From the IMG/VR virus record IMGVR_UViG_2558860984_000001, positions 49,570 to 113,569 of that record: DNA of 64,000 nt; one strand, written 5' to 3'. Below, one piece after another: positions 26,332 through 48,720 of the stretch; position 1 is the first letter of the stretch, and every line of letters starts with the position of its first letter. The notes below the pieces were generated by a model, which ran no database searches, had not been told where the DNA came from, and saw nothing but the letters and a program-made list of their open reading frames with translations. Position numbers and translations under genes: made by a program. This DNA comes from a virus (taxonomy: Duplodnaviria; Caudoviricetes).

Positions 26332-28044
26332 ATGACGTTCGAAGTCCCCGAGGACATCACCCAGCTCAACGACGACGAACTCGCCCAGGCCCTCGACGGC
26401 GCCCGCGAAGCGTTCCACGCGATGTCGACGGCCCAGGCCGTCACCGCGGACGACCTGACGCAGATGCGTGAACTGGCTACCGTCGTGGAGTCCATCCGCG
26501 GCGAGCAGACCGCCCGCCTGGAGGCCGCGCAGCAAGCCGCCGCCGAGATCGACGCCCTGGCCGCGCAGGTCCGCGGCACCGACCCGGATCCCGACACCGA
26601 CGCGGCCGACGGCGACGCGGACGAGACCGACAGCACCGCAGAGGCCACCGCCTCCGCCGACACCGAGCCCGAGACCGCCCCCGAGCCGGAGACCGCCACC
26701 GCCACCGCCTCCGCCGGCGTCGTCAACCCCAACGGCGGCGGCACCCTCATGCCCCGGCGCCGCGCCCTGGACCTCTCCGCCGTCCGCCGCGCCCAGCCCC
26801 GCGTCCTGCCCCCGGACCCCAACCCGCGCCCGGAGATCACCGCCAGCGTGGACGTGCCCGGCTACCAGCCCGGCCAGCCGCTGGACATGGAAGGCGTGAC
26901 CGAGGGCATCATCCGCCGCGCGAACGCCCTCAAGACCGCCGGCGGGGGCGTGGGCCTGACCGCGAGCTACCGCCTGCCGTTCGACAAGAGCCTGATCGTC
27001 AACGACAGCTCGTCGGGTACCGAGGGAACCCGGTCCGTCATCCTCGCCGCTGACCAGTCCCGCCTGAACGGCGGCAACATCGTCGCGTCCGGCGGCTGGT
27101 GCGCGCCCAGTGAAACGGTCTACGACCTCGCGTCCATCGCCTGCCCCGAAATGCTGTGGGACGCCCCGGAAATCATGCTCGCCCGCGGCGGCCTGCGGTT
27201 CTTCCCCATCCCGTCGCTCGACGTCGCGTCCATGACGTGGGTCCACACCGAGGCCGACGACATCGCCGGCTCCGAAAAGCCCTGCTTCCGCATCCCGTGC
27301 CCGGAACCCGTCGAGGTCAGGTGCGACGCGATCGGCGTCTGCCTGGAGTCGGGGATCTTGACCCAGAGGCATTTTCCCGAACTCGTCGCCTGGTACCAGA
27401 GCAACATCATGGTCGCCCACGAACTCAGGATCAGGCAGCACCTGTTCGAGCAGGCGATCACCCAGGCCACCCCCGTCACCCTCCCGGAGACCTTCGGCGC
27501 CCTGTCGGCCGTCTACCACGCCATCGCCATGCAGGCCGCCGACATGGTCGAGCGCCACGCCCTGTGCGACAGCATCAACATCGAGGTCGTCCTGCCCTGG
27601 TGGAGCCGCTCGCTGATGCTTGCCGACCTCGCCCGCCAGAACGGCCGCGCCCTCGAAGAGGTGTCCGTCGAGCAGCTCGTGGCTCTCTTCGCGTCGCTCG
27701 GCGTCGGCATCCAGTGGGCCCGCGGCCTCGGCCCCGCCGTCCCGACCGATATCGGCGGCCAGACCCCCATCACCTCCTGGCCCGCGCAGATCCAGATGCT
27801 CATGTACGTCGCCGGGTCCCTGCAGATCGGTCGCGGCGGCGAGATCAGCCTCGGCGTCGTACACGACTCGACGAAATTCTCGACGAACGATTACACCGCC
27901 CTCTTCTCAGAGGAGTGCGTCGCGCTGATCAACAGGGGCCCGGACCTGCGCCTGATCACCTTGCCCGTCTGCCCGAGCGGCGAGACCGGCGCCCAGACCC
28001 TCATGCTCTGCGACGCCTCTCCGGGCGAGCAGTCCCCGTCTTGA
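26332..28044 (+). CDS. major capsid protein with N-terminal scaffold region
   Basis: Coiled-coil and acidic N-terminus, ASGGWCAPSETVYD, RGGL.F, GVVHDS..TNDY..FSEE; position. Confidence 0.9.
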   Translation: MTFEVPEDITQLNDDELAQALDGAREAFHAMSTAQAVTADDLTQMRELATVVESIRGEQTARLEAAQQAAAEIDALAAQVRGTDPDPDTDAADGDADETDSTAEATASADTEPETAPEPETATATASAGVVNPNGGGTLMPRRRALDLSAVRRAQPRVLPPDPNPRPEITASVDVPGYQPGQPLDMEGVTEGIIRRANALKTAGGGVGLTASYRLPFDKSLIVNDSSSGTEGTRSVILAADQSRLNGGNIVASGGWCAPSETVYDLASIACPEMLWDAPEIMLARGGLRFFPIPSLDVASMTWVHTEADDIAGSEKPCFRIPCPEPVEVRCDAIGVCLESGILTQRHFPELVAWYQSNIMVAHELRIRQHLFEQAITQATPVTLPETFGALSAVYHAIAMQAADMVERHALCDSINIEVVLPWWSRSLMLADLARQNGRALEEVSVEQLVALFASLGVGIQWARGLGPAVPTDIGGQTPITSWPAQIQMLMYVAGSLQIGRGGEISLGVVHDSTKFSTNDYTALFSEECVALINRGPDLRLITLPVCPSGETGAQTLMLCDASPGEQSPS

Positions 28045-28063
28045 CCTCGCCCCTTCCGGAAAC

Positions 28064-28101
28064 GCCGGGCCCTGTCCTCCCCCCCCGGGACAGGGCCCGG
28101 C
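28064..28101 (+). terminator. hairpin after capsid gene
   Basis: GCCGGGCCCTGTCC...GGACAGGGCCCGGC 14-bp stem. Confidence 0.65.
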
Positions 28102-28129
28102 ACACCCCACCCGAAGGAGGTGAGGCACC

Positions 28130-28972
28130 GTGGCGCTGTACCAAGTCGTCGAGGCCATCGAAGGCAGTCCGCTTCCCCACGGGCTGCTGAACTCGTGCGC
28201 CCAGGTCGCCGACGTCGCTGATCCGCATGAGCTGATGGGCGTGGAGTGGCTCGCCCTCGGTTGCTGCCCGGTCAACGTGTGGGAGGACCCCTGCACCACC
28301 GACTCCCCAGGCGAAGTCAGTCCGGGGGAGGAGTCGCCTGGCTCCCGCGAAAAGGAGTTCTGTCGGCCCACGGTCGAACACGCCCGCCCGCTGACGGTGT
28401 ATGCGGCGGCGGAGTGCGGGGCGATCGGCTGGTCCTACGCCGAGGCACGGGAGCAGGTCCTCGCCACTCTCGAACTCGGAGAGCAGCGCGCCGTCGAGGA
28501 GGGCTTCTGGCGCAACACCCTCGCCCCCACCGCGATCGACCTGACCCCACCCGAGGGCCCCGTGTCCATAGCCCAGGGCGTCGCAGCGCTTGAGGGCTGC
28601 CTTGCCGAGTCGTACGGATCTCAGGGCCTGTTGCACGTGCCCGCGGGGGCGGCGGCTCTGCTGGGCTGCTGCAACGTTGTCCACCGCGACCCGGACGGGA
28701 CGCTGTCCACCCTGGCGGGGAACTGCGTCACCATCTCCTCTGGCGCATCCGCCATCAACGAGGGCCCCGACGGCATGCCGGCGGAGGCGGGCACGGCATG
28801 GCTGGCGATCTCCGGGCCGGTCGTGGTGCGCCGCGGCCCGGTTCACGTCGTCCCGGACCGTCCGAGCGCAGCCATCGACCGGTTCAACACGCTGCGCCTC
28901 ATCGCGGAGCGCACATACGTCGCGGCCACCACATGCACCACCTGCATGATCCGAATCGAGCTGTGTCCATGA
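28130..28972 (+). CDS. Cys-rich minor capsid/decoration protein (putative)
   Basis: AAGGAGGTG RBS; follows the major capsid gene; LELGEQRAVE, LAGNCV. Confidence 0.7.
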   Translation: MALYQVVEAIEGSPLPHGLLNSCAQVADVADPHELMGVEWLALGCCPVNVWEDPCTTDSPGEVSPGEESPGSREKEFCRPTVEHARPLTVYAAAECGAIGWSYAEAREQVLATLELGEQRAVEEGFWRNTLAPTAIDLTPPEGPVSIAQGVAALEGCLAESYGSQGLLHVPAGAAALLGCCNVVHRDPDGTLSTLAGNCVTISSGASAINEGPDGMPAEAGTAWLAISGPVVVRRGPVHVVPDRPSAAIDRFNTLRLIAERTYVAATTCTTCMIRIELCP

Positions 28973-29565
28973 ACACGAACCAGTCGACGATCCATGTACA
29001 GCCGGCCCCGCCGATGCGCCGCCGGTTCGCTCAGTGGGCGGTCGCGCAGCGACCTAAGGTGCGCACCATCAGCACGCACGAGTTCGCTGTGCCTCCACGG
29101 CTGTACGTGGACATGCCGGAAGAGCTGCTGCGCGGCTCCACGGTCGACGGGCACCCCTACGTCTCGCCGGAAGAGCCCACGGCACCCACGGTGGCGACAG
29201 CGGCGACGAAGAACGCACAGCCCCCTGGCCCCGACAGCGGCGCGGGCGGGGCCAGGGCTGCTGCCGCGCACGAGGAGGAACCGTCTACCGCCCCCGTCGA
29301 GCCGGCGGTTGACGGAACGACCGGCAGCAGTGTTCCGGTCCCGGAGAGGGCGCCGGGACCGGAACACCACCCCACCACCGCTCTTGCATCGGACGATCCG
29401 GCGTTCAGCCTCCCCGGGCCATCGGGGGAGCAGGAGCCGGCGGAGGAGTCGCCTGGGGACGCCGACAGCGCCGCGTTCGAGTGCGCTGAGTGCGACCGGC
29501 CGTTCACCTCTGCACGCGGCCGAGAGATGCACCGCCGCCGAGTCCACGTATCCCGAGAGGCGTGA
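28969..29565 (+). CDS. phage protein with C-terminal C2H2 zinc finger
   Basis: FECAECDRPFTSARGREMHRRRVH; ATGA coupling. Confidence 0.75.
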   Translation: MNTNQSTIHVQPAPPMRRRFAQWAVAQRPKVRTISTHEFAVPPRLYVDMPEELLRGSTVDGHPYVSPEEPTAPTVATAATKNAQPPGPDSGAGGARAAAAHEEEPSTAPVEPAVDGTTGSSVPVPERAPGPEHHPTTALASDDPAFSLPGPSGEQEPAEESPGDADSAAFECAECDRPFTSARGREMHRRRVHVSREA

Positions 29566-29568
29566 GCA

Positions 29569-30516
29569 GTGCCGATCGAGCCTCTACCCTGCGGCCCGGA
29601 GGGTCCCCCTCCGGGCCCCGGTGAGCCGTCGTGCTGCTCGCCGTCGATCAGCGCCGTGCCGCTGTGCAGGACGGACGGCAGCATGGTGCTGCTGGTGCTG
29701 CGCTCGATATGTGGGTGCGAAGGCGGGCCGGAGCCGGAGCCGGAGGCGGTTGGCTGGATCGACCCGGCCACCGGCGTGTTCACGCCCGGCCTGGCCCCGG
29801 ACGGCGCCGGGCCCTGCAGCCCCGGACCGGGGCCGAGCCCGGAGTCGTGCGCCACGGTCGCCGTCCTGCGCCTGTGCGACCACACCACCGACCCCGACAC
29901 CGGGGAGACGGCGTGCACGGAGTTCCTCCGGTTTCTCCCGGTGGACTGCGAGGGCACCCCGGGCACGCCGGTCGACCGCGACCGTGACGGCGTCACGCCG
30001 TATCTCCCCGACGGCGAGGTCGTCGACTGCTCAGACTGCGCATGCACGAGCAACACGAAGACGCTCGTGCTATGCGACTGGCAGCTCGACGGTACGAAGA
30101 TGCCGTTCGTACGCACCCTCACGTACGACTGCGATACCGGCGAGGTGCTGCAGCAGGCCGACTCCACCCCGAGCGGGGAGCCGTACACGCCGGTCGGGGA
30201 GGTAGACGACTGCGATGCCTGCCATCCGCTCCCGATGTGCCCGCAGCTGGTCGGAATCTCCGGCCCTGACACCTGGACGATGCCCACCCGGACGGAGTCC
30301 GTCACGGTCACCGTGGTGTGTGGTCCCGTCGACATCACGGACTGCGCCGGCGCTACGACGACCGTGAACGAGTGCGGGACGGGCTTCACATGGTCGGCAC
30401 CGCCCGGCGACTGCATCCCGGGGCGTCTCTGCGGCCCCTTCACTGTCGACGTTCCTTACGGATCGGCCGCCTACATCCAGCTCCTCGGCCCCTGCGATCT
30501 GGGAGACGTGTCGTGA
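29569..30516 (+). CDS. Cys-rich repeat structural protein
   Basis: LCD..F(L/V)R..DC..D..G.PY.P.GEV.DC repeats shared with the 1524-aa protein. Confidence 0.75.
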   Translation: MPIEPLPCGPEGPPPGPGEPSCCSPSISAVPLCRTDGSMVLLVLRSICGCEGGPEPEPEAVGWIDPATGVFTPGLAPDGAGPCSPGPGPSPESCATVAVLRLCDHTTDPDTGETACTEFLRFLPVDCEGTPGTPVDRDRDGVTPYLPDGEVVDCSDCACTSNTKTLVLCDWQLDGTKMPFVRTLTYDCDTGEVLQQADSTPSGEPYTPVGEVDDCDACHPLPMCPQLVGISGPDTWTMPTRTESVTVTVVCGPVDITDCAGATTTVNECGTGFTWSAPPGDCIPGRLCGPFTVDVPYGSAAYIQLLGPCDLGDVS

Positions 30517-31532
30517 GCGACAACTGCTGCTGCCCGAGTGTGATCTTCGGTAGGGGTGAGGGGGCACCCGGCCCGCCCGGACCCGAAGGACCTGCCGGCC
30601 CTGCCGGACCGCAGGGCGAGCCTGGCGAGTCCGCGTGCGTGTCCACGGACTCCGGTAACCAACTCCGCGTCGGACAGGACGGCTGCCTGTATGTGCCGCC
30701 GGCCGTGCCGCCGGAGCCGGTGCTGCCGGTCATCTCGCTGACCAACACCACCATCGTGGCTACCGAAGACGGAGTGTTCGACCCGGCCGACTACCCGGGC
30801 TTGCAGTACATCAAGGTCCGCGCCGTCGGCGGCGGTGGCGGCGGCGCCGGGGTGGAAGAGGTCGTCTACGGCACCACTGTGGCCGTCGGCATGTCCGGCT
30901 CCGGCGGCTCGTATGCCGAGTCGACGTTCCACGCTGCGGACCTGCCCGGCCCCATCACCTACACCGTCGGCCAGGGCGGCGCCGGGCTCCCCCAGGGCGC
31001 CGCGCAGGGCGACATGGCAGGCGACGGCGGCAACACCGTCTTCGGCCCGGGGGAGACAGTTCTCGACGCCATGCTCCTCGCTCTCGGTGGCGGCGGCGGT
31101 GGTGCGATCCGCGACTCCACGGACCTGTCGCAGTCCAACACCGCGAGGCCGTTCATGGCGATCCGCGGCGCCGCCAACCCGGACCACGGCACCGGGCTGC
31201 TGGCCTCGATCGGCGACATCACCATCCCCGGCGGCGCTGGCACCACCGGCCTGTCTCTCGGCGCTGCCGTGCTCGGCGCCGGTAACACGCTGGTGATCGG
31301 CGGCGCTGGCGGCACCACCCACATGTCGGGGCGCACCGCCGACGATGTGACGCTGCACCGCGGCGCCCAGGGCTGGGCGCAGGGCACCTCAACCGTGGAC
31401 GGCACGATCCGCTACGGTGCCGGCGGAACTGGCCGCGCAAGCGCGTTCGACGGCATCGACGAGAACGGCTACGACGGCGCCGACGGCATCCTGTTCATCG
31501 AGGTCGTGCAGCTGCAGGTGTCCGTGCCCTGA
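30513..31532 (+). CDS. collagen-repeat / glycine-rich fibre protein
   Basis: NCCC N-terminus, GXY repeats, VRAVGGGGGGAG Gly-rich domain; paralog of 51294-52013. Confidence 0.75.
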   Translation: MSDNCCCPSVIFGRGEGAPGPPGPEGPAGPAGPQGEPGESACVSTDSGNQLRVGQDGCLYVPPAVPPEPVLPVISLTNTTIVATEDGVFDPADYPGLQYIKVRAVGGGGGGAGVEEVVYGTTVAVGMSGSGGSYAESTFHAADLPGPITYTVGQGGAGLPQGAAQGDMAGDGGNTVFGPGETVLDAMLLALGGGGGGAIRDSTDLSQSNTARPFMAIRGAANPDHGTGLLASIGDITIPGGAGTTGLSLGAAVLGAGNTLVIGGAGGTTHMSGRTADDVTLHRGAQGWAQGTSTVDGTIRYGAGGTGRASAFDGIDENGYDGADGILFIEVVQLQVSVP

Positions 31533-31566
31533 CCTCCTGGCAAGAGCATCCCCTGCTTCCCGTCGA

Positions 31567-31629: not shown

Positions 31630-34600
31630 GTGCCCACTGGCGGCAACTTCTCGTGCCCTTCGGGCACCGGCCCCGTCGTCGACAACGAGCTGCGCGTCCT
31701 CTGCGACGCCGGCGGGGCCGTATTCCTGCGCCGCTACGTCATCACTGACGGCACCGCCGCGACGGTCGATACCGAACTCGACGGCATCACCCCCGTCATC
31801 GCCGCCGAGCCGGTCGGTCTGTGCGCTCAGGGCCCGGCAGAGGAGTCGCCAGGGGAGCTGTGCGAGACGACGACCCCGACGGCGACGCTCGGGCTGTGCC
31901 TTGCGGACGGCACCCCGATCGCCGTCGTGGTCACCCGCGGCTGCGACGGCACCGTCACCCAGGACGGTTGGATCAACCTCACGTCAGGCGCCTGGTCGGC
32001 AGGCACCCCTCCGGCCGGCACCGTGGCGTGCGGCAGCAGCCGCAGTATCGAGGTCTCCGGCGTGTTCTGCGACATGCTCCCGGATGGCACGGTCGCCGGG
32101 CTGGTGCTGATTGAGTACCAGTACGCGGCGGACGGAACGATCGCCGGCGTGCGCCTGGTCGACGCCACCACCGGCGATACCTACATCCCGCAAGGTGAGG
32201 TCACCACCTGCCCGGCCGGGGTGGAGCAGCCCGAGCGGGACCTGCTAGCGCTGTGCGACGTCACCGATGACGAGTCGGGCATGGTCCTCAGCGAGCCGTT
32301 CGTACGGGACTATCAGCGCGACCAGAACGGCGCCATTACCGGGCACACGGACTACACCCTCGACGGCCAGCCGTACACCCCGGTCGGCACGGTCGGAGTG
32401 TGCCAGGAGCAGCCGGATGAGCCGTGCCCGTCGACGGTGACGGTGCTGCACCTGTGTGACCTCGACCCGGACGTTGAACCGAACGATGAGGGCAAGCGGT
32501 GCGCGGTGCCGTTCCTGCGCCACCTCGTCTACGACTGCACGGGTGCCCTCACCGAGACCCGCGACACCACCCCGGACGGGTCGACCCCGTACACGCCCGT
32601 GGAGGCCGTCGACTGCGGCACCGGCGGGACCCCGGCGTTGGTCGAGGTGCCGTGGGAAGTCGTGAGCATCGAGCAGGACCCGGACAGCGACGAGGGCCGC
32701 GGCCTGGTGTTCACCCTGTCGCCGACTGACGACCCGTCGACGGTCGGCACGGTGACGGTGACGACGAGCAGCATCTACAACCCGTCCTCCTGCCCCGGGG
32801 TGCCGCCGAACTACCAGTACCGCAACCCGACGACGTACACGTTTACCCCGGACCAGGTGCTGCGGGACGCGGCGACGTACGTCCGCGTGGACCTCGAAGA
32901 CTTCGACACGTTCGAGCCCGTCACCGGCCTCACGCCGGCGCCGGACCGGCTCGGCGGCACCGCCTACTGGGACGGGACAACCGTCCGGCCGACCGAGAAC
33001 AACGGCACCGGGGAGATGTACTACGACGGCCCCCCGGAGGCGTGGTCGTACCGGGTCGGGAACACCGGTGGCGGCAACTCCTGCTCCAGCCTCAGCTTCG
33101 CCGCCGTGTCGCTGCGCGCCGAGGGCTGCTGCGCCCCATGCGGGCAGACCGAGGGCGGCGGCGACGGGCGCACCGTGCAGCCGGTGTGTGTGATCGCGAC
33201 GGCCGCGCCGGAGGACGTGCAGCGGTGGACGCGGGTCATCGACGCGGACGGCACGGCGTACTACCTCGACCCGAGCGGCGCCCGTTACGACGACGCGCTC
33301 CCCGCCGGCTACGAGATCACCGCATGCCCGGAGGAGGAGCCGCAGCCCTGCCGTGACACCTCCACGCTCCTCCTCTGTGACGCGGCATCCGGCACGGAGA
33401 CCGTTACTCCGACCGTCACCAGCACGACACTTGACGGGCTCGACCTCGGAGCGAACCCGGCCTACCCGCTTCTCGAAGGCTCATGGGCGGCGCTGTGGGC
33501 CGGCGGGGCGCTCACGTTCCCGCAGGACCCGGACGCCTCCGCGGGCGACGGCCGATTCCAGGTGTACCGGACCATCGCGGGGCAGATCACGGGCACCGTC
33601 CCGGAGGAATGCGCGACCGCGTCCGGGACGCTGACCGTCTCCGTGCGGGTCACCAACGACGGCCCGAACCCCGGGGCAGGAGGCTCCGGACTGCTGCGGC
33701 TCTACCGGGACGGCGTCGCCCTGGCGAGCGCCGGGCCAGTGGTGGACACCCCTGTGGGGCACGTGCAGACCCTCACCGTCACCGCGCCGGTCACCCCGGC
33801 CGACCTGGCGAGCGGCGCGCTCGTCGTGCTCATGTCCCTGGAGACCTTCCACACCACGCCGAAGTCCTGGACGGCCGATCAATTCATGATCGCTGGCGAC
33901 ATGGCCGGGTGTCAGGTGCAGTTCCTTCGCACCGTGACGACGGACTGCGAGACGGGCGAGGTCGTTGCGGTCACGGACACGACCCTTGACGGCACGCCGT
34001 ACACCGTCACCGGTGACGTCGGGCAGTGCACGACGGTCACGCCGCCGGAGGCGGAGGAGTGCACGCACTGCGAGACGCTGACCCTGTGCGACGCCGCCCC
34101 GGACGAGTCACCGGGCGCGCCGGACGTCGCGTACGAGACGGTTCCGCTCGCCGAGCTCGGACCGGCCCCCGCCACGGGCGTTCTGCCCAACGGTGTCGGC
34201 TATTCGGTGAACGTCGGAGCGTGGGGCGCCGCGCAGGGGCACTACACCTTCTACCCGCCGGAGGGCACCCAGCTCTGGACGTTCGACCAGCCGGTGTATG
34301 TGCGGTTCGGGCTGCGCGGCCTGAACGTCTCTCCGCCGGAGTGCTTGCGCGTGCCGGAGGGCGCGGTCGCGGAGTCGATCAGTCCCGTCCACACGTGGGA
34401 TGAGGACTCGCGCCTGCTGTGCGGGATCGTCGGCGAGTCCGACGCGGCGGACGAGTCGGTGTTCTACTTCCCCGAGCCCGTCACCGAGCTGCCGCTCGTT
34501 GCGGTGCAGAGCGACACCGGCGGGCGCGGCCCCGGCCTGATTCAAGCGGGTTTTGCCGTCGATGCGCCGGCGCCCGGCACGTCCGTGCCGTTCGGCCGCA

Positions 34601-36204
34601 CGGTCTGCCGCGACTGCTCCGGCACCGTCACGAGCATCACGGACACCACGCTGGACGGCCAGCCGTACACGGTCACCGGTGAAGTCGGCCAGTGCCAGCC
34701 GGTCGTCGAGTGCTGCGAGCAGCCGCTGCCGGAGGAGCGCGTCGACGTCGAGTCTGACGTCATGTGCATCCGCGACGCGGCCGGCGAGATCGTGCAGCAG
34801 GTCGTGGTCGAGCGGGTCTACGACGACCAGACCGGCGAGCGCACGCTGCAGCGCCTCACGGAACCGACCACCGGCGCCCCCGTGGAACTCCCCGCCGGCG
34901 CAACCCTCGTGCTGTGCACCGAGCCGGAGTGCCCGGTGGCGTTCTCCACGGAATGCGTGGGCGTGGTCGAGCGCACGGAGGCGTCGTACGACAACACGAG
35001 CCTGATCGGCGGCCTGCCGGGACTGTGCGGCAGTGTCCAGGGCCCGGACGGGCAGTTCCCGTGCACGGCCCCGGACGATACGCCGTTCACCATCGTCAGT
35101 TGGATCGTGAACGGCGAGGAGGTAATGGGCGAGGGCGGCGGCCGGCAGTTCAACGGCGGCGCCTGCGGCCCCGGCACCGACGACGCACTCGGCATGCACC
35201 GGAGCTGGGCCGAGGCGCTCACCAACCTCGACCCGACCGGCGCCACGTGGGAGGTGAAGTCGGCCGACTCCTGCGCCTGGTTCGTCGGCTCGGCCGGCGG
35301 CACCGACACCGTGTACGGGCCGATGACGGTCGTCGGCACCAGCTACGGCGGCGTACCCGAGTCCCGGTGGGTCCTCGGCCCCGCCCAGAGCTGCACCGAG
35401 ACCCCGTACACCAAGGTGTACACGCAGGACTGCGACGGTACGGTTTCCGTGTCGTGGCTGACCGAGCAGGGCGTGCCGACCGACGCGCCGACCGGCGATC
35501 TCGTGCCGTGCGGCACCGGATGCGGCAAGGGCGGCGGCGAGGGCCTGGACGTCGAGGTCCTCACCGTCTGCGACGTCAACGACGACGAGTCCGGCGCTGT
35601 CGCCGCGGTGCCGTTCCTGCGGCACTTGGTTTATGACACGGGTGGCGCCGTCGCGTACGTCGTCGACACCGGCCTCGACGGGCTCACTCCGTACACGCCG
35701 TCCGGCACCGTCGGTGTGTGCCCGGCCGGCGGTGACCAGCCGGTCACCGTCCTGGAGCAGTGCCGCTGCGACGACACCGACGGCGACGGCGTCGCCGACA
35801 CCAGCTACGTCGAACTCGTCGGGGTGGCCGCGGACGGCACGCTGACGAGCCTGGGCACCCACACGCCCGACCTCAGCGCCCCGTACGAGCCCGTCGCCCC
35901 CGTCGAATGCGCCACGGACGGAGCGCCAGCGCCCGTGGCGACCGTGCAGGCGCACCGGGTGGAAGTCCCGGCGGGCGGATCATGGACCGCGGACGGGGTA
36001 CCGCTGCTGCACGCCGTCACCCTCACCGCGTGGGGCGCCGGGGCGCAGATCACCACCGAGGACGGCACCAGCACCCTCCACGACGGCGAGTCGGCGTCGT
36101 GGTCGATCAGCCGCGACGGCGACGCGTTCCTGACGGGACCGCTGTCGGTGACTGCCACCGCGGGGACCGTGACCGTCACCTACACCACCGGGGGAACTGC
36201 ATGA
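31630..36204 (+). CDS. large acidic Cys-rich repeat protein (virion appendage candidate)
   Basis: AGGAG RBS; multiple LCD...FLR..D..G...DTTLDG.PY...G.VG.C repeats with inserted domains. Confidence 0.85.
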   Translation: MPTGGNFSCPSGTGPVVDNELRVLCDAGGAVFLRRYVITDGTAATVDTELDGITPVIAAEPVGLCAQGPAEESPGELCETTTPTATLGLCLADGTPIAVVVTRGCDGTVTQDGWINLTSGAWSAGTPPAGTVACGSSRSIEVSGVFCDMLPDGTVAGLVLIEYQYAADGTIAGVRLVDATTGDTYIPQGEVTTCPAGVEQPERDLLALCDVTDDESGMVLSEPFVRDYQRDQNGAITGHTDYTLDGQPYTPVGTVGVCQEQPDEPCPSTVTVLHLCDLDPDVEPNDEGKRCAVPFLRHLVYDCTGALTETRDTTPDGSTPYTPVEAVDCGTGGTPALVEVPWEVVSIEQDPDSDEGRGLVFTLSPTDDPSTVGTVTVTTSSIYNPSSCPGVPPNYQYRNPTTYTFTPDQVLRDAATYVRVDLEDFDTFEPVTGLTPAPDRLGGTAYWDGTTVRPTENNGTGEMYYDGPPEAWSYRVGNTGGGNSCSSLSFAAVSLRAEGCCAPCGQTEGGGDGRTVQPVCVIATAAPEDVQRWTRVIDADGTAYYLDPSGARYDDALPAGYEITACPEEEPQPCRDTSTLLLCDAASGTETVTPTVTSTTLDGLDLGANPAYPLLEGSWAALWAGGALTFPQDPDASAGDGRFQVYRTIAGQITGTVPEECATASGTLTVSVRVTNDGPNPGAGGSGLLRLYRDGVALASAGPVVDTPVGHVQTLTVTAPVTPADLASGALVVLMSLETFHTTPKSWTADQFMIAGDMAGCQVQFLRTVTTDCETGEVVAVTDTTLDGTPYTVTGDVGQCTTVTPPEAEECTHCETLTLCDAAPDESPGAPDVAYETVPLAELGPAPATGVLPNGVGYSVNVGAWGAAQGHYTFYPPEGTQLWTFDQPVYVRFGLRGLNVSPPECLRVPEGAVAESISPVHTWDEDSRLLCGIVGESDAADESVFYFPEPVTELPLVAVQSDTGGRGPGLIQAGFAVDAPAPGTSVPFGRTVCRDCSGTVTSITDTTLDGQPYTVTGEVGQCQPVVECCEQPLPEERVDVESDVMCIRDAAGEIVQQVVVERVYDDQTGERTLQRLTEPTTGAPVELPAGATLVLCTEPECPVAFSTECVGVVERTEASYDNTSLIGGLPGLCGSVQGPDGQFPCTAPDDTPFTIVSWIVNGEEVMGEGGGRQFNGGACGPGTDDALGMHRSWAEALTNLDPTGATWEVKSADSCAWFVGSAGGTDTVYGPMTVVGTSYGGVPESRWVLGPAQSCTETPYTKVYTQDCDGTVSVSWLTEQGVPTDAPTGDLVPCGTGCGKGGGEGLDVEVLTVCDVNDDESGAVAAVPFLRHLVYDTGGAVAYVVDTGLDGLTPYTPSGTVGVCPAGGDQPVTVLEQCRCDDTDGDGVADTSYVELVGVAADGTLTSLGTHTPDLSAPYEPVAPVECATDGAPAPVATVQAHRVEVPAGGSWTADGVPLLHAVTLTAWGAGAQITTEDGTSTLHDGESASWSISRDGDAFLTGPLSVTATAGTVTVTYTTGGTA

Positions 36205-39423: not shown

Positions 39424-40238
39424 TGCCGCTGAGTCCGGCGCCGTGTGAGCCGTGGCCGTTCGATCCGTCGTGCTGCGACGTTCCCGATGGTGTCAAGCAG
39501 AGCGACATCGACCGATGGCGGCAAGTGGCCACCAGCATCCTGTTCTTCCTGTCCGGTCGACGCTGGGGGCCGTCGTGCCCCCTGACGGTTCGCCCGTGCG
39601 GACGGTCGTGCATCGAGGCGCTGCTGCCGCTGACGCCCTCGGGCTACAGAGGGCCACAGACCGGGGGGCGCGTCCCGTACCTGCACGATGGGGCGTGGTT
39701 CAACGCCGTGTGCGGCTGCACCACGGACTGCTCCTGCACACAGCTGTGCAGCCTGCGCTTGGTCGGCCCGGTACACGACGTCGTCGAGGTCCTGGTCGAC
39801 GGAGTCGTGTTGCCGCCGGAGGCATACCGGGTGGACTCGGCGAACATGCTGATCCGGCTGGACGGCGAATGCTGGGACGCCTGTCAAGATCTTCAGGCTC
39901 CGCCGACGGAGCCGGGCACGGCAGCGGTGACATACCGGGTGGGGCTACCGCTTGACGCCGCGGCCATCGCGGCTGTCTCCGAGCTGACCTGTCACCTGCT
40001 GAAGGGGTGCAACGGCGGCTCATGCGGCTGCGGCGTCTCCCGGCAAAACGTGTCCCGGGTACAGCGGCAGGGCGTGACCCTAGAGATGGCCGACATTGGC
40101 CTTCTGTACCGGGAAGGGAGGACGGGGTTGCCGGTCACGGATATGTGGCTGGCGGCCGTGAACCCCTACGGGCAGCACAGCCCTTCAACCGTCCGGAGCG
40201 TGGATCACCGACGTCCTCGCCAGCAAACCTGGCCCTGA
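39423..40238 (+). CDS. head-tail adaptor/connector (putative, Cys-rich)
   Basis: ATSILFFLSGR, GPV..V.EVLVDG, RQGVT, GRTGLP..D.WL..VNP. Confidence 0.7.
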   Translation: MPLSPAPCEPWPFDPSCCDVPDGVKQSDIDRWRQVATSILFFLSGRRWGPSCPLTVRPCGRSCIEALLPLTPSGYRGPQTGGRVPYLHDGAWFNAVCGCTTDCSCTQLCSLRLVGPVHDVVEVLVDGVVLPPEAYRVDSANMLIRLDGECWDACQDLQAPPTEPGTAAVTYRVGLPLDAAAIAAVSELTCHLLKGCNGGSCGCGVSRQNVSRVQRQGVTLEMADIGLLYREGRTGLPVTDMWLAAVNPYGQHSPSTVRSVDHRRPRQQTWP

Positions 40239-40249
40239 GAGCGAGACCG

Positions 40250-40846
40250 ATGATGCCGCTATCACCGTTGTCCGTGCACGACCTCACCGAGGCCGTTCTT
40301 GCGTGCGTGTGCGCCCACCTGGAGGAGACCGCCGCGCAGACCGAGGGACAGCCCGGCTGCCCCTGCCGTACGTGCGTCGTGCCCGGCGCTGTCGCCTTCG
40401 ACTCGTGCGAAGACCCGTGCAGCGGTGAAGCCGGCGGCCAACTCACCGTCAGCCTCGCCCGCCTCTACCCGGCGTCGCCAAGCGACTTCCCCGCCGAGGA
40501 CCGCACGGTGCGCGGGCTGCGAGGCTGTCCCGGCATCTCACTGAACGCAGCTGAACTCATCGTCACGCTGCTGCGCTGCGCTCCGATCGGTGACGACAAC
40601 GGCTGCCCACCAACGTGCGAGGAACTGGCCGCCGCCGCCCGCGTCATGCACATCGATGCCGTGACCGTGCAGACGGCGCTGCTGTGCTGCTTTCCGGCTA
40701 CTGCGCCATCTCGCCGAGGGCGCCGCTTCGTCCTCGGGCCCCAGCGCACCATCGGCCCCCAGGGCGGCTGCGTCGGGGTCGAGCAGCGGGTGACGATCGC
40801 GCTGCCCGGTTGCGCTTCGTGCCCTGGGGAGGACAGCCCGAGTTGA
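40250..40846 (+). CDS. tail terminator / neck protein (putative, Cys-rich)
   Basis: Position; GPQGGCVG motif; ends CPGEDSPS. Confidence 0.6.
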   Translation: MMPLSPLSVHDLTEAVLACVCAHLEETAAQTEGQPGCPCRTCVVPGAVAFDSCEDPCSGEAGGQLTVSLARLYPASPSDFPAEDRTVRGLRGCPGISLNAAELIVTLLRCAPIGDDNGCPPTCEELAAAARVMHIDAVTVQTALLCCFPATAPSRRGRRFVLGPQRTIGPQGGCVGVEQRVTIALPGCASCPGEDSPS

Positions 40847-41869: not shown

Positions 41870-42430
41870 ATGCGTAAGATCCCGACGCTGTTCGTCCGTG
41901 ACCCCGATGACCTTCGCCGTGTGCTGCCGGAGGCCACGCCAGGGTGCGAATGGGTCCTCGCTGGCGAGGGCGTCCCAACCCGCAAGTACGACGGGACGTG
42001 CGTGATGCTCGACGCCTCGGGAGAGTGGTGGGCGCGCCGCGAGGTCAAGCCCGGGAAGGCCGCGCCGGACCGCTTCGTCCAGGTCGACCACGATCCGGTC
42101 ACGGGTAAGTCGGTGGGCTGGGAGCCGATCAGCCAGTCGGCCTTCGCGAAGTTCCACGCCGAGGCGGTCGCCGACGTTTCGGCTGTGTTCGAGCCCGGCA
42201 CCTACGAGCTGATTGGCCCGAAGATCAACGGGAATCCGGAGGGTGAAGGGCACCACCGGCTCCGGCCGCATGCGTCCGCGCAGCGCCTGGAGGTCGCGGA
42301 GCGTTCCTTCGACGGCATCCGGGAGGCCGTGCTGACGCTGCGGGCGGTCGACGGTGCGGAGGGTGTGGTGTTCCACCACCCTGACGGGCGCATGGCGAAG
42401 ATCAAGGCGCGCGACTTCCGCGTGCTCTGA
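41870..42430 (+). CDS. RNA ligase-like nucleotidyltransferase (DUF5565/RLIG1-like)
   Basis: MRKIPTLF, TRKYDGT (motif I), TYELIGPKINGN, EGVVFH..MAKIK. Confidence 0.8.
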   Translation: MRKIPTLFVRDPDDLRRVLPEATPGCEWVLAGEGVPTRKYDGTCVMLDASGEWWARREVKPGKAAPDRFVQVDHDPVTGKSVGWEPISQSAFAKFHAEAVADVSAVFEPGTYELIGPKINGNPEGEGHHRLRPHASAQRLEVAERSFDGIREAVLTLRAVDGAEGVVFHHPDGRMAKIKARDFRVL

Positions 42431-43894: not shown

Positions 43895-43946
43895 AGCTGC
43901 TCGGGATGGGTGTGTGCGCCGGATACCCTGAGTACGACGTACGACG

Positions 43947-43966
43947 CTGCTGGCGGTAGGCCGGGC
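43947..43966 (+). promoter_or_regulatory. late-gene leader motif (copy 8, before tape measure)
   Basis: CTGCTGGCGGTAGGCCGGGC; TACCCT at 43924. Confidence 0.7.
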
Positions 43967-43995
43967 CCCGCGAATTTCCGCGAGGCGGTGGGCCG

Positions 43996-46900
43996 GTGGC
44001 AGATGGCGAGCTGGCAGGCGCCGCCCACATCCGCATCGAGCTGGATGACAGCGGCCTGGACACTGCCGGTCGGCGTGCCGGTGAGCGGGCCGGGCGCGAC
44101 TTCGAGCAGGCGCTCAACCGGGCGGGCCAGCGCAGTGCACGCAGGATGCGGCGCATCCTGCAGAACGCGGCACGTGACCTGACGGTCCGGGTGCGGGTCG
44201 AGCCGGACCTGAGCCGCCTGGGCAGTGTCACCGTCCCGGTCGAGCCGGACGTCAGCCTGTTCATGGCGCGGCTGCGTTCGGCGCTGGCTGATGAGGAGGT
44301 TGCGATCCGGGTCGTCCCAGACCTGGATCGTTTTGACTCCGCCCTGCTGTCCGGGCTGTCGAGCCTGACCAGCATCAACATTCCTGTCGAGCCGGACACA
44401 ACGTTCTTCGTGGCGCGGTTGCAGGACGCGCTCGTCGGCGAGCAGGTCGCTATCGAGGTCATCCCGGACCTTTCCGGCTTCGATGCGCGGCTGCGCACGG
44501 TGTTGGCGAGTATGCCCGCGGTCGAGATTCCGGTCCGGCCGAACGCAGCGCTCTTCCGCCAGTGGCTGGCGAACGATCTGCGTGGTCTGGCGGCGGTTGA
44601 GGTTCCGGTCAGCCCAGATATGACCGGGCTCGATGCGCAGGTTCGTGCTCACCGGGCGCCAGCTATCGGGGTATCGGTGGATGCGGATCCGGCCGGGCTG
44701 GACCGGATGTCGGCGTCGTTGGAGAGGCTGGGATCGGTCCTCGGGATCACTGCCCGCGTCACGGCCCTGACGCTGGCCCTTGGGCTCCTCGGTGGCGCCG
44801 CCGCAGCGTCGGCCGCGTCGCTCATCGGCGTCGGTGCCGCGCTCGCTCCTGCCGCCGGGATCCTGGCTGCGTTCCCGGCGGCGGTTCTTGGTGCCTCGGC
44901 CGCGCTCGGCGCGCTGCGCCTGGCGACGTTGGGTGTCAGCGAGGCGTTCGAGGCCGCGCTCACCGGCGACGCCGAGGAATTCGAGGAGGCCCTGGAGGGT
45001 CTGAGCCCAGCGGCGCGGGCGGCGGCCCGGGAAGTGCGGGCGCTCACGCCGGAGTTCCAGCGGCTCCGGTCAGCGGTTCAGGACGCGTTCTTCTCGCGCA
45101 TCGAGGGCGACATCACCCGTGTCGCCGAAGCCCTGGGCGGACCGCTGCGCCGCGGACTGCGGGAGATCGCAGCGGATTGGGGGGTTGCCGCATCGGCCGC
45201 GGCCGGCTTCCTGGCTTCGACGCAGGGCGTCACCCGTATCTCGCAGGTCCTCGCGGGCACCCAGCGGGTCACCGGCGCCCTCGCGGGCGAGGTCCGCGGG
45301 CTGGTCGCCGGGTTCCTCAACCTCGCCGGCGCCATCAGCCGGGCGTTCGGTGCCCGAGCGGCGACCGCGCTCGGCGATCTCGCAGGAGGGCTCGGCGACT
45401 TCCTCAACCGCATCGCCAACTCCGGGCAGGCGGTCGCATGGGTCGACGACGCCGTCTTCACTTTCCGGCAGCTCGGCGCTGTCATCTCGAACGTCGCCAG
45501 CATCATCGGGTCCGTCTTCCAGGCGGCCAACGCCGCTGGCGGTGATGTTCTCGGCGTCCTGGGGAGCCTGACCGGCGAGGCTGCGCGGTTCCTGAACACC
45601 GCGGAGGGCTCTGGCGCCCTCGTCGGCGTCTTCGAGACCCTCGCCGCGGTCGGAGCCGCGCTGGGGCCGATCCTGACGGAGCTGGTCACGCAGATCGGAG
45701 CCCTCGCACCAGCGTTCGTACCGATCATCCAGGCCCTCGGCCCGGCGCTCACCCGGGTCCTGGCCGCCCTGGGCCCCGCCCTACAGGCGGTCATGCCCGG
45801 CCTCCAGGCCATCGCCGCCGGGCTCGCCGACGGGCTGGGCGCCCTCGGCCCGGCGCTGCAGCCCCTCGGCGCGGCCCTCGGCCAGGCGCTCGCTGCACTG
45901 GCGCCGCTGCTGCCCCTGCTGGGGGAGTTCGCCGCGTTCGTCGGGACCGCCCTGACCGGCTCGCTGGGGGTCCTGACCGCTGCGCTCTCCCCGGTCATCG
46001 ACGCGCTCGCCAGCTCGTTCGCCCCGGTGATCCGGCAGCTCGTGCCGATCCTTCGGCAGATGACAGCTGCTGCCATGCCGCTGGCCGCAGCGTTCGGGCA
46101 GAGTCTCGCGTTGGCCCTACAGCAGCTCCTGCCCCCGGTACTGGAGCTGATCCCGCAGCTGCTCACGGGGCTGCTACCTGCGTTCCAGCAGCTCGTCGCG
46201 GCGATCGTGCCGCTTCTCCCGCTGCTCGCCGAGCTGGTGGTGGTTGCCCTGCAGCCGGTGATCGCGGTGCTGCCGCAGGCGATCACCCTGTTCGTCGCGC
46301 TGGTCAACGGGCTCACCCCGCTGCTGCACCTGCTGAACCAGATCCTGCCGCCGGCGCTCCGCTTCTACACCGCGGTGTTGGGATGGGTGAACATGCAGGT
46401 CGTCGTCCCGGCGCTGAGGTTGATTGTCGGGGCACTCGGGCTCCTGGCTCGTGCCGTGACCGCGGTAGTGGGCGCCGTGGCGAGCTTCGTCTCCCGCGTG
46501 ATCAGCTTCTTCCAGACCCTCTACAACACCCTCGTCGGCAACAGCATCATCCCGGACCTGGTCAACGGGATTCTCCGATGGTTCGGCATGCTGGGGCGGA
46601 TCCCGGGGATCGTCGCGCGGGTGGTCGCGCAGGTGCTCGGAGCGTTCGCGCGGATGGCCGCCAGCGCCATCGCCGCCGCCGGCCGGCTCGTCAGCCGCGT
46701 CGCGGACACGATCGGGCGGCTCCCCGCAGAGGCAGCCTCGGCGATCAGCAGTCTGGGGTCCCGCGTCGCGGACGAGATCAGCGGTGCCGCGAGGGCTGCC
46801 ATCGGCGCGGCGAAGGGTCTGATCAGCGACATCGCATCCCAGTTCAGCGGCCTGGCCTCGGCGATCGTGAGCAACATCGGTGATGTAGGCGGCGCGATCA

Positions 46901-47247
46901 TGGGCGCCATCCGCGGCTCGGTGCCGTCCGGGGTCCGGGATCTCCTCCCCGACATCGGGATCCCACTGTTCGCGAACGGCGGGATCGTCAACCGGCCCAC
47001 CCTCGGTGTCCTCGGAGAAGCCGGGCGCGAGGTTGTCCTGCCTCTTACCCGCCATGCCAGGGCCCGCCAGCTCGCCGAGCAGTCCGGCCTGACGGACATC
47101 CTGGGCACCGGAAGCGGCGACGGCGACGGCGACGGCGACGGGCCGCACACCGTCCACCACCACACCTGGAACCTCCAAGAGGTCGGCGACGCCGAGGTGA
47201 CCGCGCGCAGGGTGATGCACCGCATGGCGATGGCAGCAGGAGTGTGA
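43996..47247 (+). CDS. tape measure protein
   Basis: 1083 aa Ala/Leu/Gly-rich helical repeats, LVGNSIIPDLV, C-terminal FANGGIV..GEAGREVVLPL. Confidence 0.93.
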   Translation: MADGELAGAAHIRIELDDSGLDTAGRRAGERAGRDFEQALNRAGQRSARRMRRILQNAARDLTVRVRVEPDLSRLGSVTVPVEPDVSLFMARLRSALADEEVAIRVVPDLDRFDSALLSGLSSLTSINIPVEPDTTFFVARLQDALVGEQVAIEVIPDLSGFDARLRTVLASMPAVEIPVRPNAALFRQWLANDLRGLAAVEVPVSPDMTGLDAQVRAHRAPAIGVSVDADPAGLDRMSASLERLGSVLGITARVTALTLALGLLGGAAAASAASLIGVGAALAPAAGILAAFPAAVLGASAALGALRLATLGVSEAFEAALTGDAEEFEEALEGLSPAARAAAREVRALTPEFQRLRSAVQDAFFSRIEGDITRVAEALGGPLRRGLREIAADWGVAASAAAGFLASTQGVTRISQVLAGTQRVTGALAGEVRGLVAGFLNLAGAISRAFGARAATALGDLAGGLGDFLNRIANSGQAVAWVDDAVFTFRQLGAVISNVASIIGSVFQAANAAGGDVLGVLGSLTGEAARFLNTAEGSGALVGVFETLAAVGAALGPILTELVTQIGALAPAFVPIIQALGPALTRVLAALGPALQAVMPGLQAIAAGLADGLGALGPALQPLGAALGQALAALAPLLPLLGEFAAFVGTALTGSLGVLTAALSPVIDALASSFAPVIRQLVPILRQMTAAAMPLAAAFGQSLALALQQLLPPVLELIPQLLTGLLPAFQQLVAAIVPLLPLLAELVVVALQPVIAVLPQAITLFVALVNGLTPLLHLLNQILPPALRFYTAVLGWVNMQVVVPALRLIVGALGLLARAVTAVVGAVASFVSRVISFFQTLYNTLVGNSIIPDLVNGILRWFGMLGRIPGIVARVVAQVLGAFARMAASAIAAAGRLVSRVADTIGRLPAEAASAISSLGSRVADEISGAARAAIGAAKGLISDIASQFSGLASAIVSNIGDVGGAIMGAIRGSVPSGVRDLLPDIGIPLFANGGIVNRPTLGVLGEAGREVVLPLTRHARARQLAEQSGLTDILGTGSGDGDGDGDGPHTVHHHTWNLQEVGDAEVTARRVMHRMAMAAGV

Positions 47248-47250
47248 CCC

Positions 47251-48720
47251 GTGATCCCTGACTACCTCCTCCTCGGCGAGACGGAGATCATCAACACGGC
47301 GCGGCTGCGCACCTACCTGGATACGGTTGGCTCTCCGCTGGACTCGGTCACCCCGTGCGGCTGCGGCACGCTGGAGGCCGAGCACGTCGGCGACGATCCG
47401 TACACCACCCCGGACGCGGACACCGCGCCGTGGTACGACCCCGACATCCCTGAGAGCGCGGATTTCGTCGGGTTCCTGCCGATGGAAGTCACCGGTTTCG
47501 ACGACCACCCGGTGACCCGGGAGGTCACCACTTCGATCACGGGCGGGGCAGCGTTCGCGCGGGCGCGCACCCAGCCGCGGACGATCACCGTCACCGGCAT
47601 CCTGCTCGGGGTGACGTGCTGCGCGGTGGCGTACGGGCTGCGGTGGCTGTCGCAGGCGTTGGGCGGCTGTACCGGATCGGCCTGCGGTGGGGACTGCCTG
47701 ACGGGCTACATCTGCTGCCCGGACGACGACGAGGCCGCCGAGACGGACGGGTTCGAGCGGCATCGGCGGACGCTGCGTCGTGTGGGGCTCACCTCCGGGC
47801 CGACGGTCACGGCCCGATCGGGTACTGGCTGCTCCGGGGTGGGCGGCTGCTCTGTCGGCGCCGACATCCTCACCGTTGAGTTCGTGCTGACGGCCGGGGT
47901 GCCGTGGGCGTGGACCTCCCTGGTACCCGTCCTCAATGTCGACGTGCCCTCCGATGACGGGGAGTGCATCACGTGGTGCATCCACGGCGGCGACGTGCCG
48001 CCGGCACCGGTGTGCGTGGACCTGCCGGTGGGCGGCGTCGATCCCGAGTGCGGCCCGGACGGGGTCCTGGTCCCGATCGGTGAGGACGAGTCGCCCGGGG
48101 AGGAGTCCCCAGGCGACGGGTGCGTGCAGTGGCCGGTGCTGGAGGAGATCACCGATCCGTGTGTGCGGTGTCGGCTGGCGCCGTGCCCGGACCCAGAGGC
48201 GGGCTGCCAGGACCCGACATGCCGCACACCGACGCCGCCGGCGCCCCCGCCGCCGAGCACCTGCTTCTGCACGCAGCTCGCGGTGAACGAGGAGTTCTAC
48301 GACCTCGACCTGTCTGATCAGCCGCGGTGGTTCGCGAGCGTGCCGGTGATCGAGGTGCACGCCGGCAGCGCGAGTCTGAGGCGAGTCACGGTCACCTTTT
48401 ACGAGCGCACGGGCGAGCACGAAGGGCTGTCGTGTGAGGAGGTCGCCTACGCCGAGCGCTGCTCCCCAGCCGCGGTCTTCGAGGCGTCGTTCGTACCTGA
48501 AGGCGGGGTGCTCACGTTCGACGGGCAGACCGGGCGGGCGATCGTCGAGTGCCGCGACGATTGCGAAACCTCGCAGGACTCTTACGGCGCGGACGGCGGC
48601 CCGATCGAATGGCCGGACCTGGACTGTGACCAGTACTGCATCAGCATCGCCGCGGACGCCATCGTTCCACCGGCGGACGACGCCCGGGTGGTCGTCGCGG
48701 TGACCGGCAGGGAGTACTGA
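47251..48720 (+). CDS. distal tail protein (putative, Cys-rich)
   Basis: Directly after tape measure; APWYDP..ES..F.G. Confidence 0.75.
   Translation: MIPDYLLLGETEIINTARLRTYLDTVGSPLDSVTPCGCGTLEAEHVGDDPYTTPDADTAPWYDPDIPESADFVGFLPMEVTGFDDHPVTREVTTSITGGAAFARARTQPRTITVTGILLGVTCCAVAYGLRWLSQALGGCTGSACGGDCLTGYICCPDDDEAAETDGFERHRRTLRRVGLTSGPTVTARSGTGCSGVGGCSVGADILTVEFVLTAGVPWAWTSLVPVLNVDVPSDDGECITWCIHGGDVPPAPVCVDLPVGGVDPECGPDGVLVPIGEDESPGEESPGDGCVQWPVLEEITDPCVRCRLAPCPDPEAGCQDPTCRTPTPPAPPPPSTCFCTQLAVNEEFYDLDLSDQPRWFASVPVIEVHAGSASLRRVTVTFYERTGEHEGLSCEEVAYAERCSPAAVFEASFVPEGGVLTFDGQTGRAIVECRDDCETSQDSYGADGGPIEWPDLDCDQYCISIAADAIVPPADDARVVVAVTGREY

Follow-up and report, generated by a model that had tools for sequence, protein, structure and literature searches.

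Gene order and candidate acceptor sites

We analyzed a 64 kilobase (kb) stretch of DNA, referred to as the window, which is the right-hand part of a 113,569-base provirus record in IMG/VR (IMGVR_UViG_2558860984_000001) that is rated complete by CheckV. The window has a G+C content of 70%, its genes are located on the plus strand, and the gene order was obtained from PHROG and Pfam scans of the window proteins. It is the structural module of a temperate siphophage of the Streptomyces type, present as a provirus, and the closest isolated phage is Streptomyces phage TurkishDelight, with 65% identity in the capsid protein, followed by YDN12 and other members of the Woodruffvirus group, with about 56%. 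An initial annotation, made from the sequence alone, had suggested that short Ser-containing peptides in the virion proteins are acceptors for a glycan or phosphoglycan attached by two phage-encoded transferases, one similar to GT-A glycosyltransferases and the other to Stealth enzymes, the genes of which flank the tail-tube gene, as we also find. Here, we describe these candidate acceptors, which are Ser residues at the extreme C-terminus and internal (D/E)xSPG tags, and their co-variation in related phages with the gene for the Stealth-like enzyme, called mini-Stealth below. The genes and peptides concerned are as follows (sizes in amino acids, aa):

26332-28044, plus strand: major capsid (hexamer) protein, 570 aa (phrog_777, E 1.6e-157; 65% identical to the "major capsid hexamer protein" of TurkishDelight)
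28006-28041, plus strand: C-terminal tail of the capsid protein, LCDASPGEQSPS, proposed acceptor
28130-28972, plus strand: capsid-associated protein, 280 aa, pentamer-like by position (phrog_779)
28301-28342, plus strand: DSPGEVSPGEESPG, three tandem tags (DSPG-EVSPG-EESPG) in a Cys-flanked loop of the phrog_779 protein
28969-29565, plus strand: 198-aa protein with a C-terminal C2H2-like zinc finger (phrog_30321)
29443-29460, plus strand: tag EESPGD in the phrog_30321 protein
29569-30516, plus strand: Cys-rich protein, 315 aa, 25 Cys, N-terminal part matching phrog_18824; it ends in PCDLGDVS, a further terminal Ser
31630-36204, plus strand: giant Cys-rich repeat protein, 1524 aa (phrog_18824)
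31840-31857, plus strand: tag EESPGE in the giant protein
34102-34119, plus strand: tag DESPGA in the giant protein
36794-37741, plus strand: GT-A-fold glycosyltransferase, 315 aa (by predicted fold)
37883-38584, plus strand: major tail (tube) protein, 233 aa (phrog_792, E 1.5e-92)
38561-38581, plus strand: C-terminal tail of the tail tube, LCDASLS, proposed acceptor
38581-39423, plus strand: mini-Stealth transferase, 280 aa (phrog_7999, E 4e-79)
39423-40238, plus strand: head-tail adaptor, 271 aa (phrog_783, E 1.5e-76), the downstream anchor in the locus comparison
40250-40846, plus strand: connector-region protein, 198 aa (phrog_810)
40820-40843, plus strand: C-terminal tail of the phrog_810 protein, CPGEDSPS
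47251-48720, plus strand: minor tail protein, 489 aa (phrog_838)
48082-48117, plus strand: tandem tags EDESPGEESPGD in the minor tail protein, inside an insertion found in few relatives

All peptides quoted in the initial annotation were confirmed, at or 1-3 nucleotides (nt) from the positions reported for them, and the proteins that carry them belong to different PHROG families (777, 779, 30321, 18824, 838, 792, 810). The tail CPGEDSPS of the 40250-40846 product was also confirmed, but the name neck protein given to it was conjecture, since no function is assigned to phrog_810 and its gene just follows that of the head-tail adaptor. Of the 350 positions in the phrog_792 profile, only 3-230 are matched by the tail tube, which has the short Ser tail where other members of the family continue into a C-terminal extension domain.

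The motif [ED]SPG[ED] was observed 5 times in 18 proteins of the structural module (7087 aa), whereas 300 residue shuffles of these proteins averaged 0.06 occurrences and never reached 5. It was absent from the 33 other window proteins (9621 aa), as well as from all three opposite-strand frames and the third frame of the plus strand. The tripeptide LCD was enriched in the structural-module proteins (10 observed as compared to 1.03 expected from shuffles), and the giant protein has many LCD motifs in addition to its tags.

We examined the codons of 28 SPG tags, drawn from the window and from six relatives, and found each of the six Ser codons (TCN and AGY) as well as each of the four Pro codons. 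Because of this diversity, the tags are conserved at the level of the peptide rather than the DNA, which agrees with the selection on the peptide that had been suggested from the window alone. Because CCWGG, with the rare Pro codons CCA or CCT, is present in four of the window's five strict tags, a DNA-level origin was considered, but it was ruled out by the free codon variation among the 28 tags from these seven phages.

Co-variation with the mini-Stealth gene

We compared 80 IMG/VR loci anchored on the tail-tube protein and three phage records by tblastn, where counts for the tail tube refer to loci with at least 50% identity in this protein. The mini-Stealth gene was either located exactly between the genes for the tail tube and the adaptor (gap of about 710 nt) or absent (gap of about 30-110 nt), and in all 27 Stealth-positive loci it was located inside the late structural operon. 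The tail tube has a Ser among its last three residues in each of these 27 loci, as compared to none of the 24 Stealth-negative loci, and Ser is the very last residue in 21 of the former and none of the latter. Typical ends are ..LCLAS, ..CEVS and ..LCDAS(LS/PS/V/A) in the Stealth-positive loci, as compared to ..CDYVPVPA and similar in the Stealth-negative loci.

The capsid tails, which are encoded 3-10 kb from the Stealth gene, follow the same pattern, with a Ser among the last three residues in six of seven Stealth-positive phages (CAAGSS, CGSGDAS, CAAAESPGSTS) and in none of nine Stealth-negative relatives (CAVTP, CPTA). The lone Stealth-positive capsid protein without a terminal Ser, from locus L005, ends in SESPAI. 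In the loop of the phrog_779 protein, 1-5 tandem (D/E)xSPG units were present in 7/9 Stealth-positive loci, with five units in L004, and in none of 14 informative Stealth-negative loci. In these comparisons, terminal Ser on tail tube and capsid and SPG tags in the loop were confined to relatives with the Stealth-like gene, so that the proposal withstood its refuting condition, an equal presence of the tags in relatives without transferases. The insertion that hosts the tags of the minor tail protein is missing from most relatives, so these tags provide no such contrast. In a tail-tube tree, which was built without the last 25 residues and contained 49 rows with 43 distinct cores, the Ser tail and the Stealth gene each require two changes, and these are inferred at the same two places.

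Several relatives showed additional changes in this region. Two loci (L017:8019-9016 and L019:1-917) have an insertion of an IS4/IS5-type transposase (DUF4096 plus DDE) directly 5' of the tail-tube gene; in the second of these, the Stealth-like gene is shortened to 148 aa and the tail tube still has a Ser tail. A gene for a C-5 cytosine DNA methylase is located within the structural region of another Stealth-positive relative (L008:4453-5775).

Predicted structures of the two transferases

The product of the gene at 38581-39423 is, according to its predicted structure, a divergent and minimal member of the Stealth family of about 230 aa. It consists of a core of about 230-235 aa followed by a disordered tail, and its match to Pfam Stealth_CR2 (E 3.4e-6, 27.7 bits) is under the cut-off of 39.4 bits. 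A profile of 23 homologues searched against PDB recovered CpsY from M. tuberculosis at E 1e-6 as well as GNPTAB at E 1e-5, and in both alignments the motifs LRYxLRS and NDD coincide. The residues N87, D88 and D89 are invariant in the 23 sequences, by which the catalytic Asn and Asp (N322 and D324 in CpsY) of Stealth CR2, a region of about 100 residues, are retained. The AlphaFold2 (AF2) model, with a predicted local distance difference test (pLDDT) score of 86.8, has the overall catalytic fold of Stealth enzymes: the 11 best listed rows (ranks 1-13) in a Foldseek search against PDB were all Stealth enzymes, and CpsY was matched at E 8e-13 with a template modeling (TM) score of 0.56-0.59. The predicted fold and the profile matches to PDB thus bear out the earlier assignment as Stealth-like. 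At the N-terminus, the CR1 region reads PDIVVPV, as compared to the Stealth motif IDVVYTF, with D6 and V8 invariant and no match to Pfam CR1 at E values up to 10. For CR3, which has an essential Arg in CpsY (R419), the HMMER alignment already ends at profile position 155, and the invariant H171 and R173 are candidates.

The mini-Stealth family contains 1117 cluster representatives at E ≤ 1e-30, most of which are 220-260 aa long, and its members are annotated as "hypothetical protein" in all 50 phage records in which they were identified by tblastn. Two of 16 longer members scanned are natural fusions, one of GT2 and mini-Stealth (P0140, 526 aa) and the other of GT4, mini-Stealth and an HeH domain (P0160, 635 aa), which fits with GT2 or GT4 and mini-Stealth enzymes working in one pathway. 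An HeH domain likewise follows the mini-Stealth core in P0076.

By sequence alone, the protein encoded at 36794-37741 matched no Pfam family even at E 10 and no PHROG, the only match in PDB was a chance match (E 2.3), and none of its 31 homologues has a Pfam domain. In their alignment, which was examined for a DxD-type metal and nucleotide-sugar motif, the SPDER motif is invariant (P77, D78, E79 and R80, after a beta-strand) and D38 nearly so. The AF2 model (pLDDT 89) has a GT-A Rossmann-like fold, in agreement with the initial annotation, and the top Foldseek matches were the glycocin glycosyltransferases SunS and ThuS (E 1e-4, TM 0.39). These two enzymes (PDB 7msp and 7msk) were also the closest solved structures by VIA-align, with Z scores of 12.1 and 11.8, respectively, as compared to 9.3 for SpsA and 9.4-9.7 for LARGE1, cellulose synthase and heparosan synthase. 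About 200 residues are aligned, at a sequence identity of only 8-12%, and the GT-A enzyme has no match to Pfam GT2. SunS and ThuS modify Cys or Ser of peptides.

The GT-A gene was found by tblastn only in the window and in L004, together with a nitroreductase gene. Pfam GT4 domains were identified 5' of this gene for the tail tube in TurkishDelight as well as 14 Stealth-positive loci, whereas the 11 Stealth-negative loci that were scanned had none. The scan covered 97 upstream open reading frames (ORFs); five duplicate loci were excluded, along with nine further ORFs and any ORF that matched the capsid, phrog_779 or giant protein. Six loci with a Stealth gene (L005, L007, L012, L023, L050 and L058) have no recognizable second transferase within 6.5 kb, and one of these, L005, has four SPG tags despite this. 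The second enzyme in tagged phages is thus the GT-A enzyme (the window and L004), a double GT4 (TurkishDelight) or none within reach (L005), and because it varies in this manner, the Stealth gene is the factor that is common to phages with tags. Of the two transferases originally proposed as partners of the tags, only the Stealth-like enzyme is conserved with them; in place of the GT-A enzyme, most relatives have GT4 and some have no recognizable second transferase.

Other actinophage lineages

Stealth-like genes were also identified by tblastn in actinophages that are unrelated to the clade of the window. In a profile search of whole records, mini-Stealth was found in all four records expected to have it (E values from 1e-41 to 1e-58) and in none of the six expected to lack it, including all of YDN12. 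The capsid and tail-tube ends of these phages and of phages used for comparison are as follows:

Fionnbharth (mycobacteriophage, K4): Stealth-like gene gp6; capsid end AGSGS, tail-tube end LVGSV
Gaia (mycobacteriophage): solitary Stealth-like gene, about 78 kb from the capsid gene; capsid end PSSGS, tail-tube end VVGS
OneUp (Gordonia phage): Stealth-like gene present; capsid end NAGS, tail-tube end GFGS
Yvonnetastic (Gordonia phage): Stealth-like gene present; capsid end GTAS, tail-tube end AASS
ZoeJ (K-cluster): no Stealth gene by profile search; capsid end TPAA, tail-tube end VIAV
Pixie (K-cluster): no Stealth gene by profile search; capsid end DVTP, tail-tube end VIAV
BarrelRoll (K-cluster): no Stealth gene by profile search; capsid end PAGE, tail-tube end IVAA
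Yunkel11 (K-cluster): Stealth gene absent from the tblastn list, record not profile-searched; capsid end TAGP, tail-tube end TVAV
Hammy (Mycobacterium phage, L096): no Stealth gene; capsid end QGGS, tail-tube end VVAA
Ramsey (F1, Che8 group): no Stealth gene; capsid end DGS, tail-tube end DGS

The capsid protein of Yvonnetastic is homologous to that of OneUp, so the two phages are not independent. No glycosyltransferase is annotated in the genome of Fionnbharth. In all four Stealth-positive phages the Stealth gene is located far from the structural genes, and in Gaia and OneUp it is found among non-structural genes. Because the terminal Ser persists where the genes are far apart, physical linkage does not explain the co-variation. 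Hitch-hiking of the tail-tube tail with the adjoining Stealth gene was ruled out, since the capsid tails and the lineages with a distant gene behave alike. As a signature of the proposed system, the terminal Ser is thus widespread, but the internal (D/E)xSPG tags emphasized in the initial annotation are confined to a sub-clade.

Other features of the window

The remaining genes of interest in the module are:

30513-31532, plus strand: collagen/Gly-rich protein
36201-36797, plus strand: nitroreductase-family protein, 198 aa (Pfam Nitroreductase, E 8.9e-15)
41870-42430, plus strand: RNA ligase (phrog_14301; Pfam RLIG1)
43996-47247, plus strand: tape measure protein
48722-49768, plus strand: second minor tail protein

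The nitroreductase gene belongs to the late structural operon; its end overlaps with the start codon for the GT-A enzyme, and the same gene pair is present in L004, while L070 and L071 contain a nitroreductase copy with 56% identity. The RNA ligase gene is placed between the connector genes and the genes for tail assembly and the tape measure, and no counterpart was identified by tblastn in any of the 83 related loci. The C2H2-like finger of the phrog_30321 protein, which has a Pfam E value of 0.005-0.008 and falls under the cut-off, is kept in gp19 of TurkishDelight.

Many of the structural proteins are rich in Cys, with 10 residues in the capsid protein, 13 in the phrog_779 protein, 25 in the 315-aa protein, 56 in the giant protein, 17 in the adaptor, 16 in the phrog_810 protein and 29 in the minor tail protein, as compared to 0 in the tape measure and the chaperone-region proteins. 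Together with the enrichment of LCD, the Cys-rich proteins encoded at 26332-49768 suggest particles that may be stabilized by disulfides or metals. The giant phrog_18824 protein, the gene for which is located between the capsid and tail genes, contains repeated Cys-bracketed units of the form ..DTTLDGxPYTPxGxVxxC.. and varies in size from about 400 to 1600 aa among relatives. It may serve for decoration or as a fibre.

Comparison to known systems

Glycosylation of capsid and tail-tube subunits by phage-encoded transferases has been established for Che8, Corndog and Myrna, according to the relevant passages of two reports (PMC12363180 and PMC11256854, citing Freeman 2023), which also state that virion glycosylation in mycobacteriophages, known from few phages, shields the particles from antibodies. 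The phage of the window likewise encodes transferases, and the subunits of its capsid and tail tube, which are the predicted targets, end in Ser. The terminal Ser of the Che8 proteins is reportedly the site of O-glycosylation. Ramsey, the F1 relative of Che8, has the same terminal-Ser signature; judged from the sequences, a terminal Ser thus accompanies other transferase systems as well. Mini-Stealth, with which the tags co-vary in our data set, is in contrast absent from Ramsey and was not found by tblastn in any phage of clusters F, O or C. Further differences are that the transferase genes in the window are located inside the structural operon and that internal tandem (D/E)xSPG tags are present on additional virion proteins. 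The internal tandem tags, which resemble sequons, and the tie to the mini-Stealth family would be the new elements relative to the known glycosylation of mycobacteriophage virions. Our literature search recovered nothing that links Stealth proteins to phage virions or reports glycosylation of Streptomyces phage capsids, although most subscription papers were outside its scope, which makes this weak evidence of absence.

Stealth enzymes transfer hexose-1-phosphate from UDP-sugars, and the acceptor of CpsY is a glucan, as described in passages of PMC10668966. Mini-Stealth has the fold of CpsY (PDB 8j2n) and the GlcNAc-1-phosphotransferase GNPTAB (PDB 7s6n and 9bgg) and shares their LRYxLRS and NDD motifs of CR2, in which the metal-binding Asp is retained (also from passages of PMC10668966); its N-terminal DIVVPV may correspond to CR1. 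It differs from these enzymes by its core of only about 230 aa, which has no spacer segments, and by its presumed acceptor, which would be a protein Ser rather than a sugar.

A proposed virion modification system

Taken together, the co-variation and the predicted structures suggest that the phage probably coats its own virion covalently, by means of a mini-Stealth enzyme that acts on Ser tails and tags. A cytoplasmic mini-Stealth transferase would recognize short Ser-containing peptides, which we assume to be exposed on the surface. As acceptors, the capsid and tail-tube proteins would provide the Ser tails at their extreme C-termini, which probably holds for the connector-region protein and the Cys-rich protein too, and the capsid-associated, giant and minor tail proteins would provide loops with internal tandem (D/E)xSPG tags. 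Mini-Stealth would move a sugar, or a sugar-1-phosphate as in Stealth enzymes, from a UDP-sugar to the Ser hydroxyl, and a second transferase (GT-A here, GT4 elsewhere) would then add to or extend the modification, which would result in a glycan coat on head and tail. The modification of Ser, the order of the enzymes, the donor sugar and the phosphodiester chemistry are elements that we infer.

It is conceivable, if on balance rather unlikely, that mini-Stealth writes sugar-1-phosphate directly on Ser residues of the capsid, the tail tube and other virion proteins (phosphoglycosylation). Such a Ser-phosphosugar linkage is possible because hexose-1-phosphate is what Stealth enzymes transfer from UDP-sugars. 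To our knowledge, sugar-1-phosphate on protein Ser is not known in bacteria or their viruses. In eukaryotes, phosphoglycosylation attaches sugar-1-phosphate to Ser in Dictyostelium and Leishmania, where Ser-rich repeat tags are the targets; the linkage would be the same if mini-Stealth has kept the Stealth chemistry, and the organisms and compartments differ.

Several observations weigh against the proposed modification of virion proteins by mini-Stealth. The known acceptors of Stealth enzymes are sugar hydroxyls, not protein Ser. The CR4 tetrapeptide CLND/CIND is absent from the 280 aa of mini-Stealth, which have a conserved C-terminal block LSTMxDSF, and E305 of CpsY aligns with Arg in the phage family. 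The match between enzyme and acceptor is also incomplete: two Stealth-positive loci (L018 and L039) have no SPG in the phrog_779 loop, and the phrog_810 protein has a Ser among its last three residues in 17/26 Stealth-positive loci as compared to 2/23 Stealth-negative loci, which is a partial match. The capsid protein of Hammy, which ends in Ser in a phage without a Stealth gene, is a partial exception, and Ramsey, with a terminal Ser on both proteins and no Stealth gene, shows that this residue is not specific to mini-Stealth. Moreover, there are only two independent gain or loss events in the clade, a phylogenetic sign test had 1-2 independent pairs, which are too few for significance, and the rows include many near-copies, with 43 distinct tail-tube cores in a total of 49. 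Finally, L028, which was counted as Stealth-negative, ends 74 nt past the tail-tube gene, so it is an uncertain negative.

Each of the three rival explanations that we considered accounts for less of the co-variation than does modification of the virion. It appears improbable that the tails and tags serve a purely structural role without being modified, be it as acidic Pro-Gly turns, as flexible spacers or as Cys-linked signals for stabilization or assembly, and were co-inherited or recombined with the Stealth gene. The small number of independent transitions in the clade fits with this explanation, as do the 3' end of the tail-tube gene, which abuts the Stealth gene, the unusually Cys-rich virion proteins with their Cys-flanked tags, and the GGS end of the Hammy capsid protein. 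However, the co-variation extends to the capsid tails at a distance of 3-10 kb, the terminal Ser is also found where the Stealth gene is located tens of kb from the structural genes, and SPG units vary from 1 to 5 copies at a single loop exclusively in Stealth-positive phages, as would be expected of an acceptor array. We consider it quite unlikely that the Stealth-like and GT-A enzymes modify the host envelope (capsule, glucan or wall polysaccharide), resulting in superinfection exclusion or receptor masking, with the Ser tails and tags as unrelated structural features. Characterized Stealth enzymes do act on polysaccharides, with CpsY transferring to glucan (as stated in passages of PMC10668966), the element is a provirus, and the Stealth gene is located among non-structural genes in Gaia and OneUp. 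This would leave unexplained why terminal Ser co-varies on two virion proteins and recurs in lineages with non-homologous capsid and tail genes, and it sits poorly with the position of the gene inside the late structural operon, in the interval between tail tube and adaptor, in every Stealth-positive locus of the clade.

The acceptor could also be the conserved Cys just before the Ser (LCDAS, CLAS, CPGE), which would be S-glycosylated by the SunS/ThuS-like GT-A enzyme, with Ser being only a part of the recognition site. A Cys is located 2-11 residues from the end in nearly all tails of the clade, LCD is enriched by the numbers given above, and the Cys S-glycosyltransferases SunS and ThuS are the closest solved structures, by about 2 Z units over other GT-A enzymes. 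We nevertheless regard this as highly unlikely: the GT-A enzyme is limited to the window and L004, its Foldseek TM score to these enzymes is low at 0.39, near-terminal Cys residues are also present in Stealth-negative relatives (CAVTP, CPTA, SCDYVPVPA), and the tails of the mycobacteriophages and Gordonia phages contain no Cys.

Implications

Modification of the virion by mini-Stealth would provide a rule of enzyme plus tag for a set of actinophages that is different from, and much larger than, the known virion-glycosylating mycobacteriophages. As the acceptor signatures can be read from the sequence, the predicted glycosylation may be tested phage by phage, including Fionnbharth-type phages on a laboratory host. 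If phosphoglycosylation were to be true, the (D/E)xSPG unit, like the terminal x-Ser-COOH, would act as a portable sequon of variable copy number by which actinophages tune a charged phosphoglycan coat, and the roughly 1,100 clusters of the mini-Stealth family would mark a widespread system for modification of the virion. The transfer of a sugar-phosphate to Ser would then be a new protein modification for bacterial viruses, and the tandem tags would be candidate short sequons for engineering of particle surfaces.

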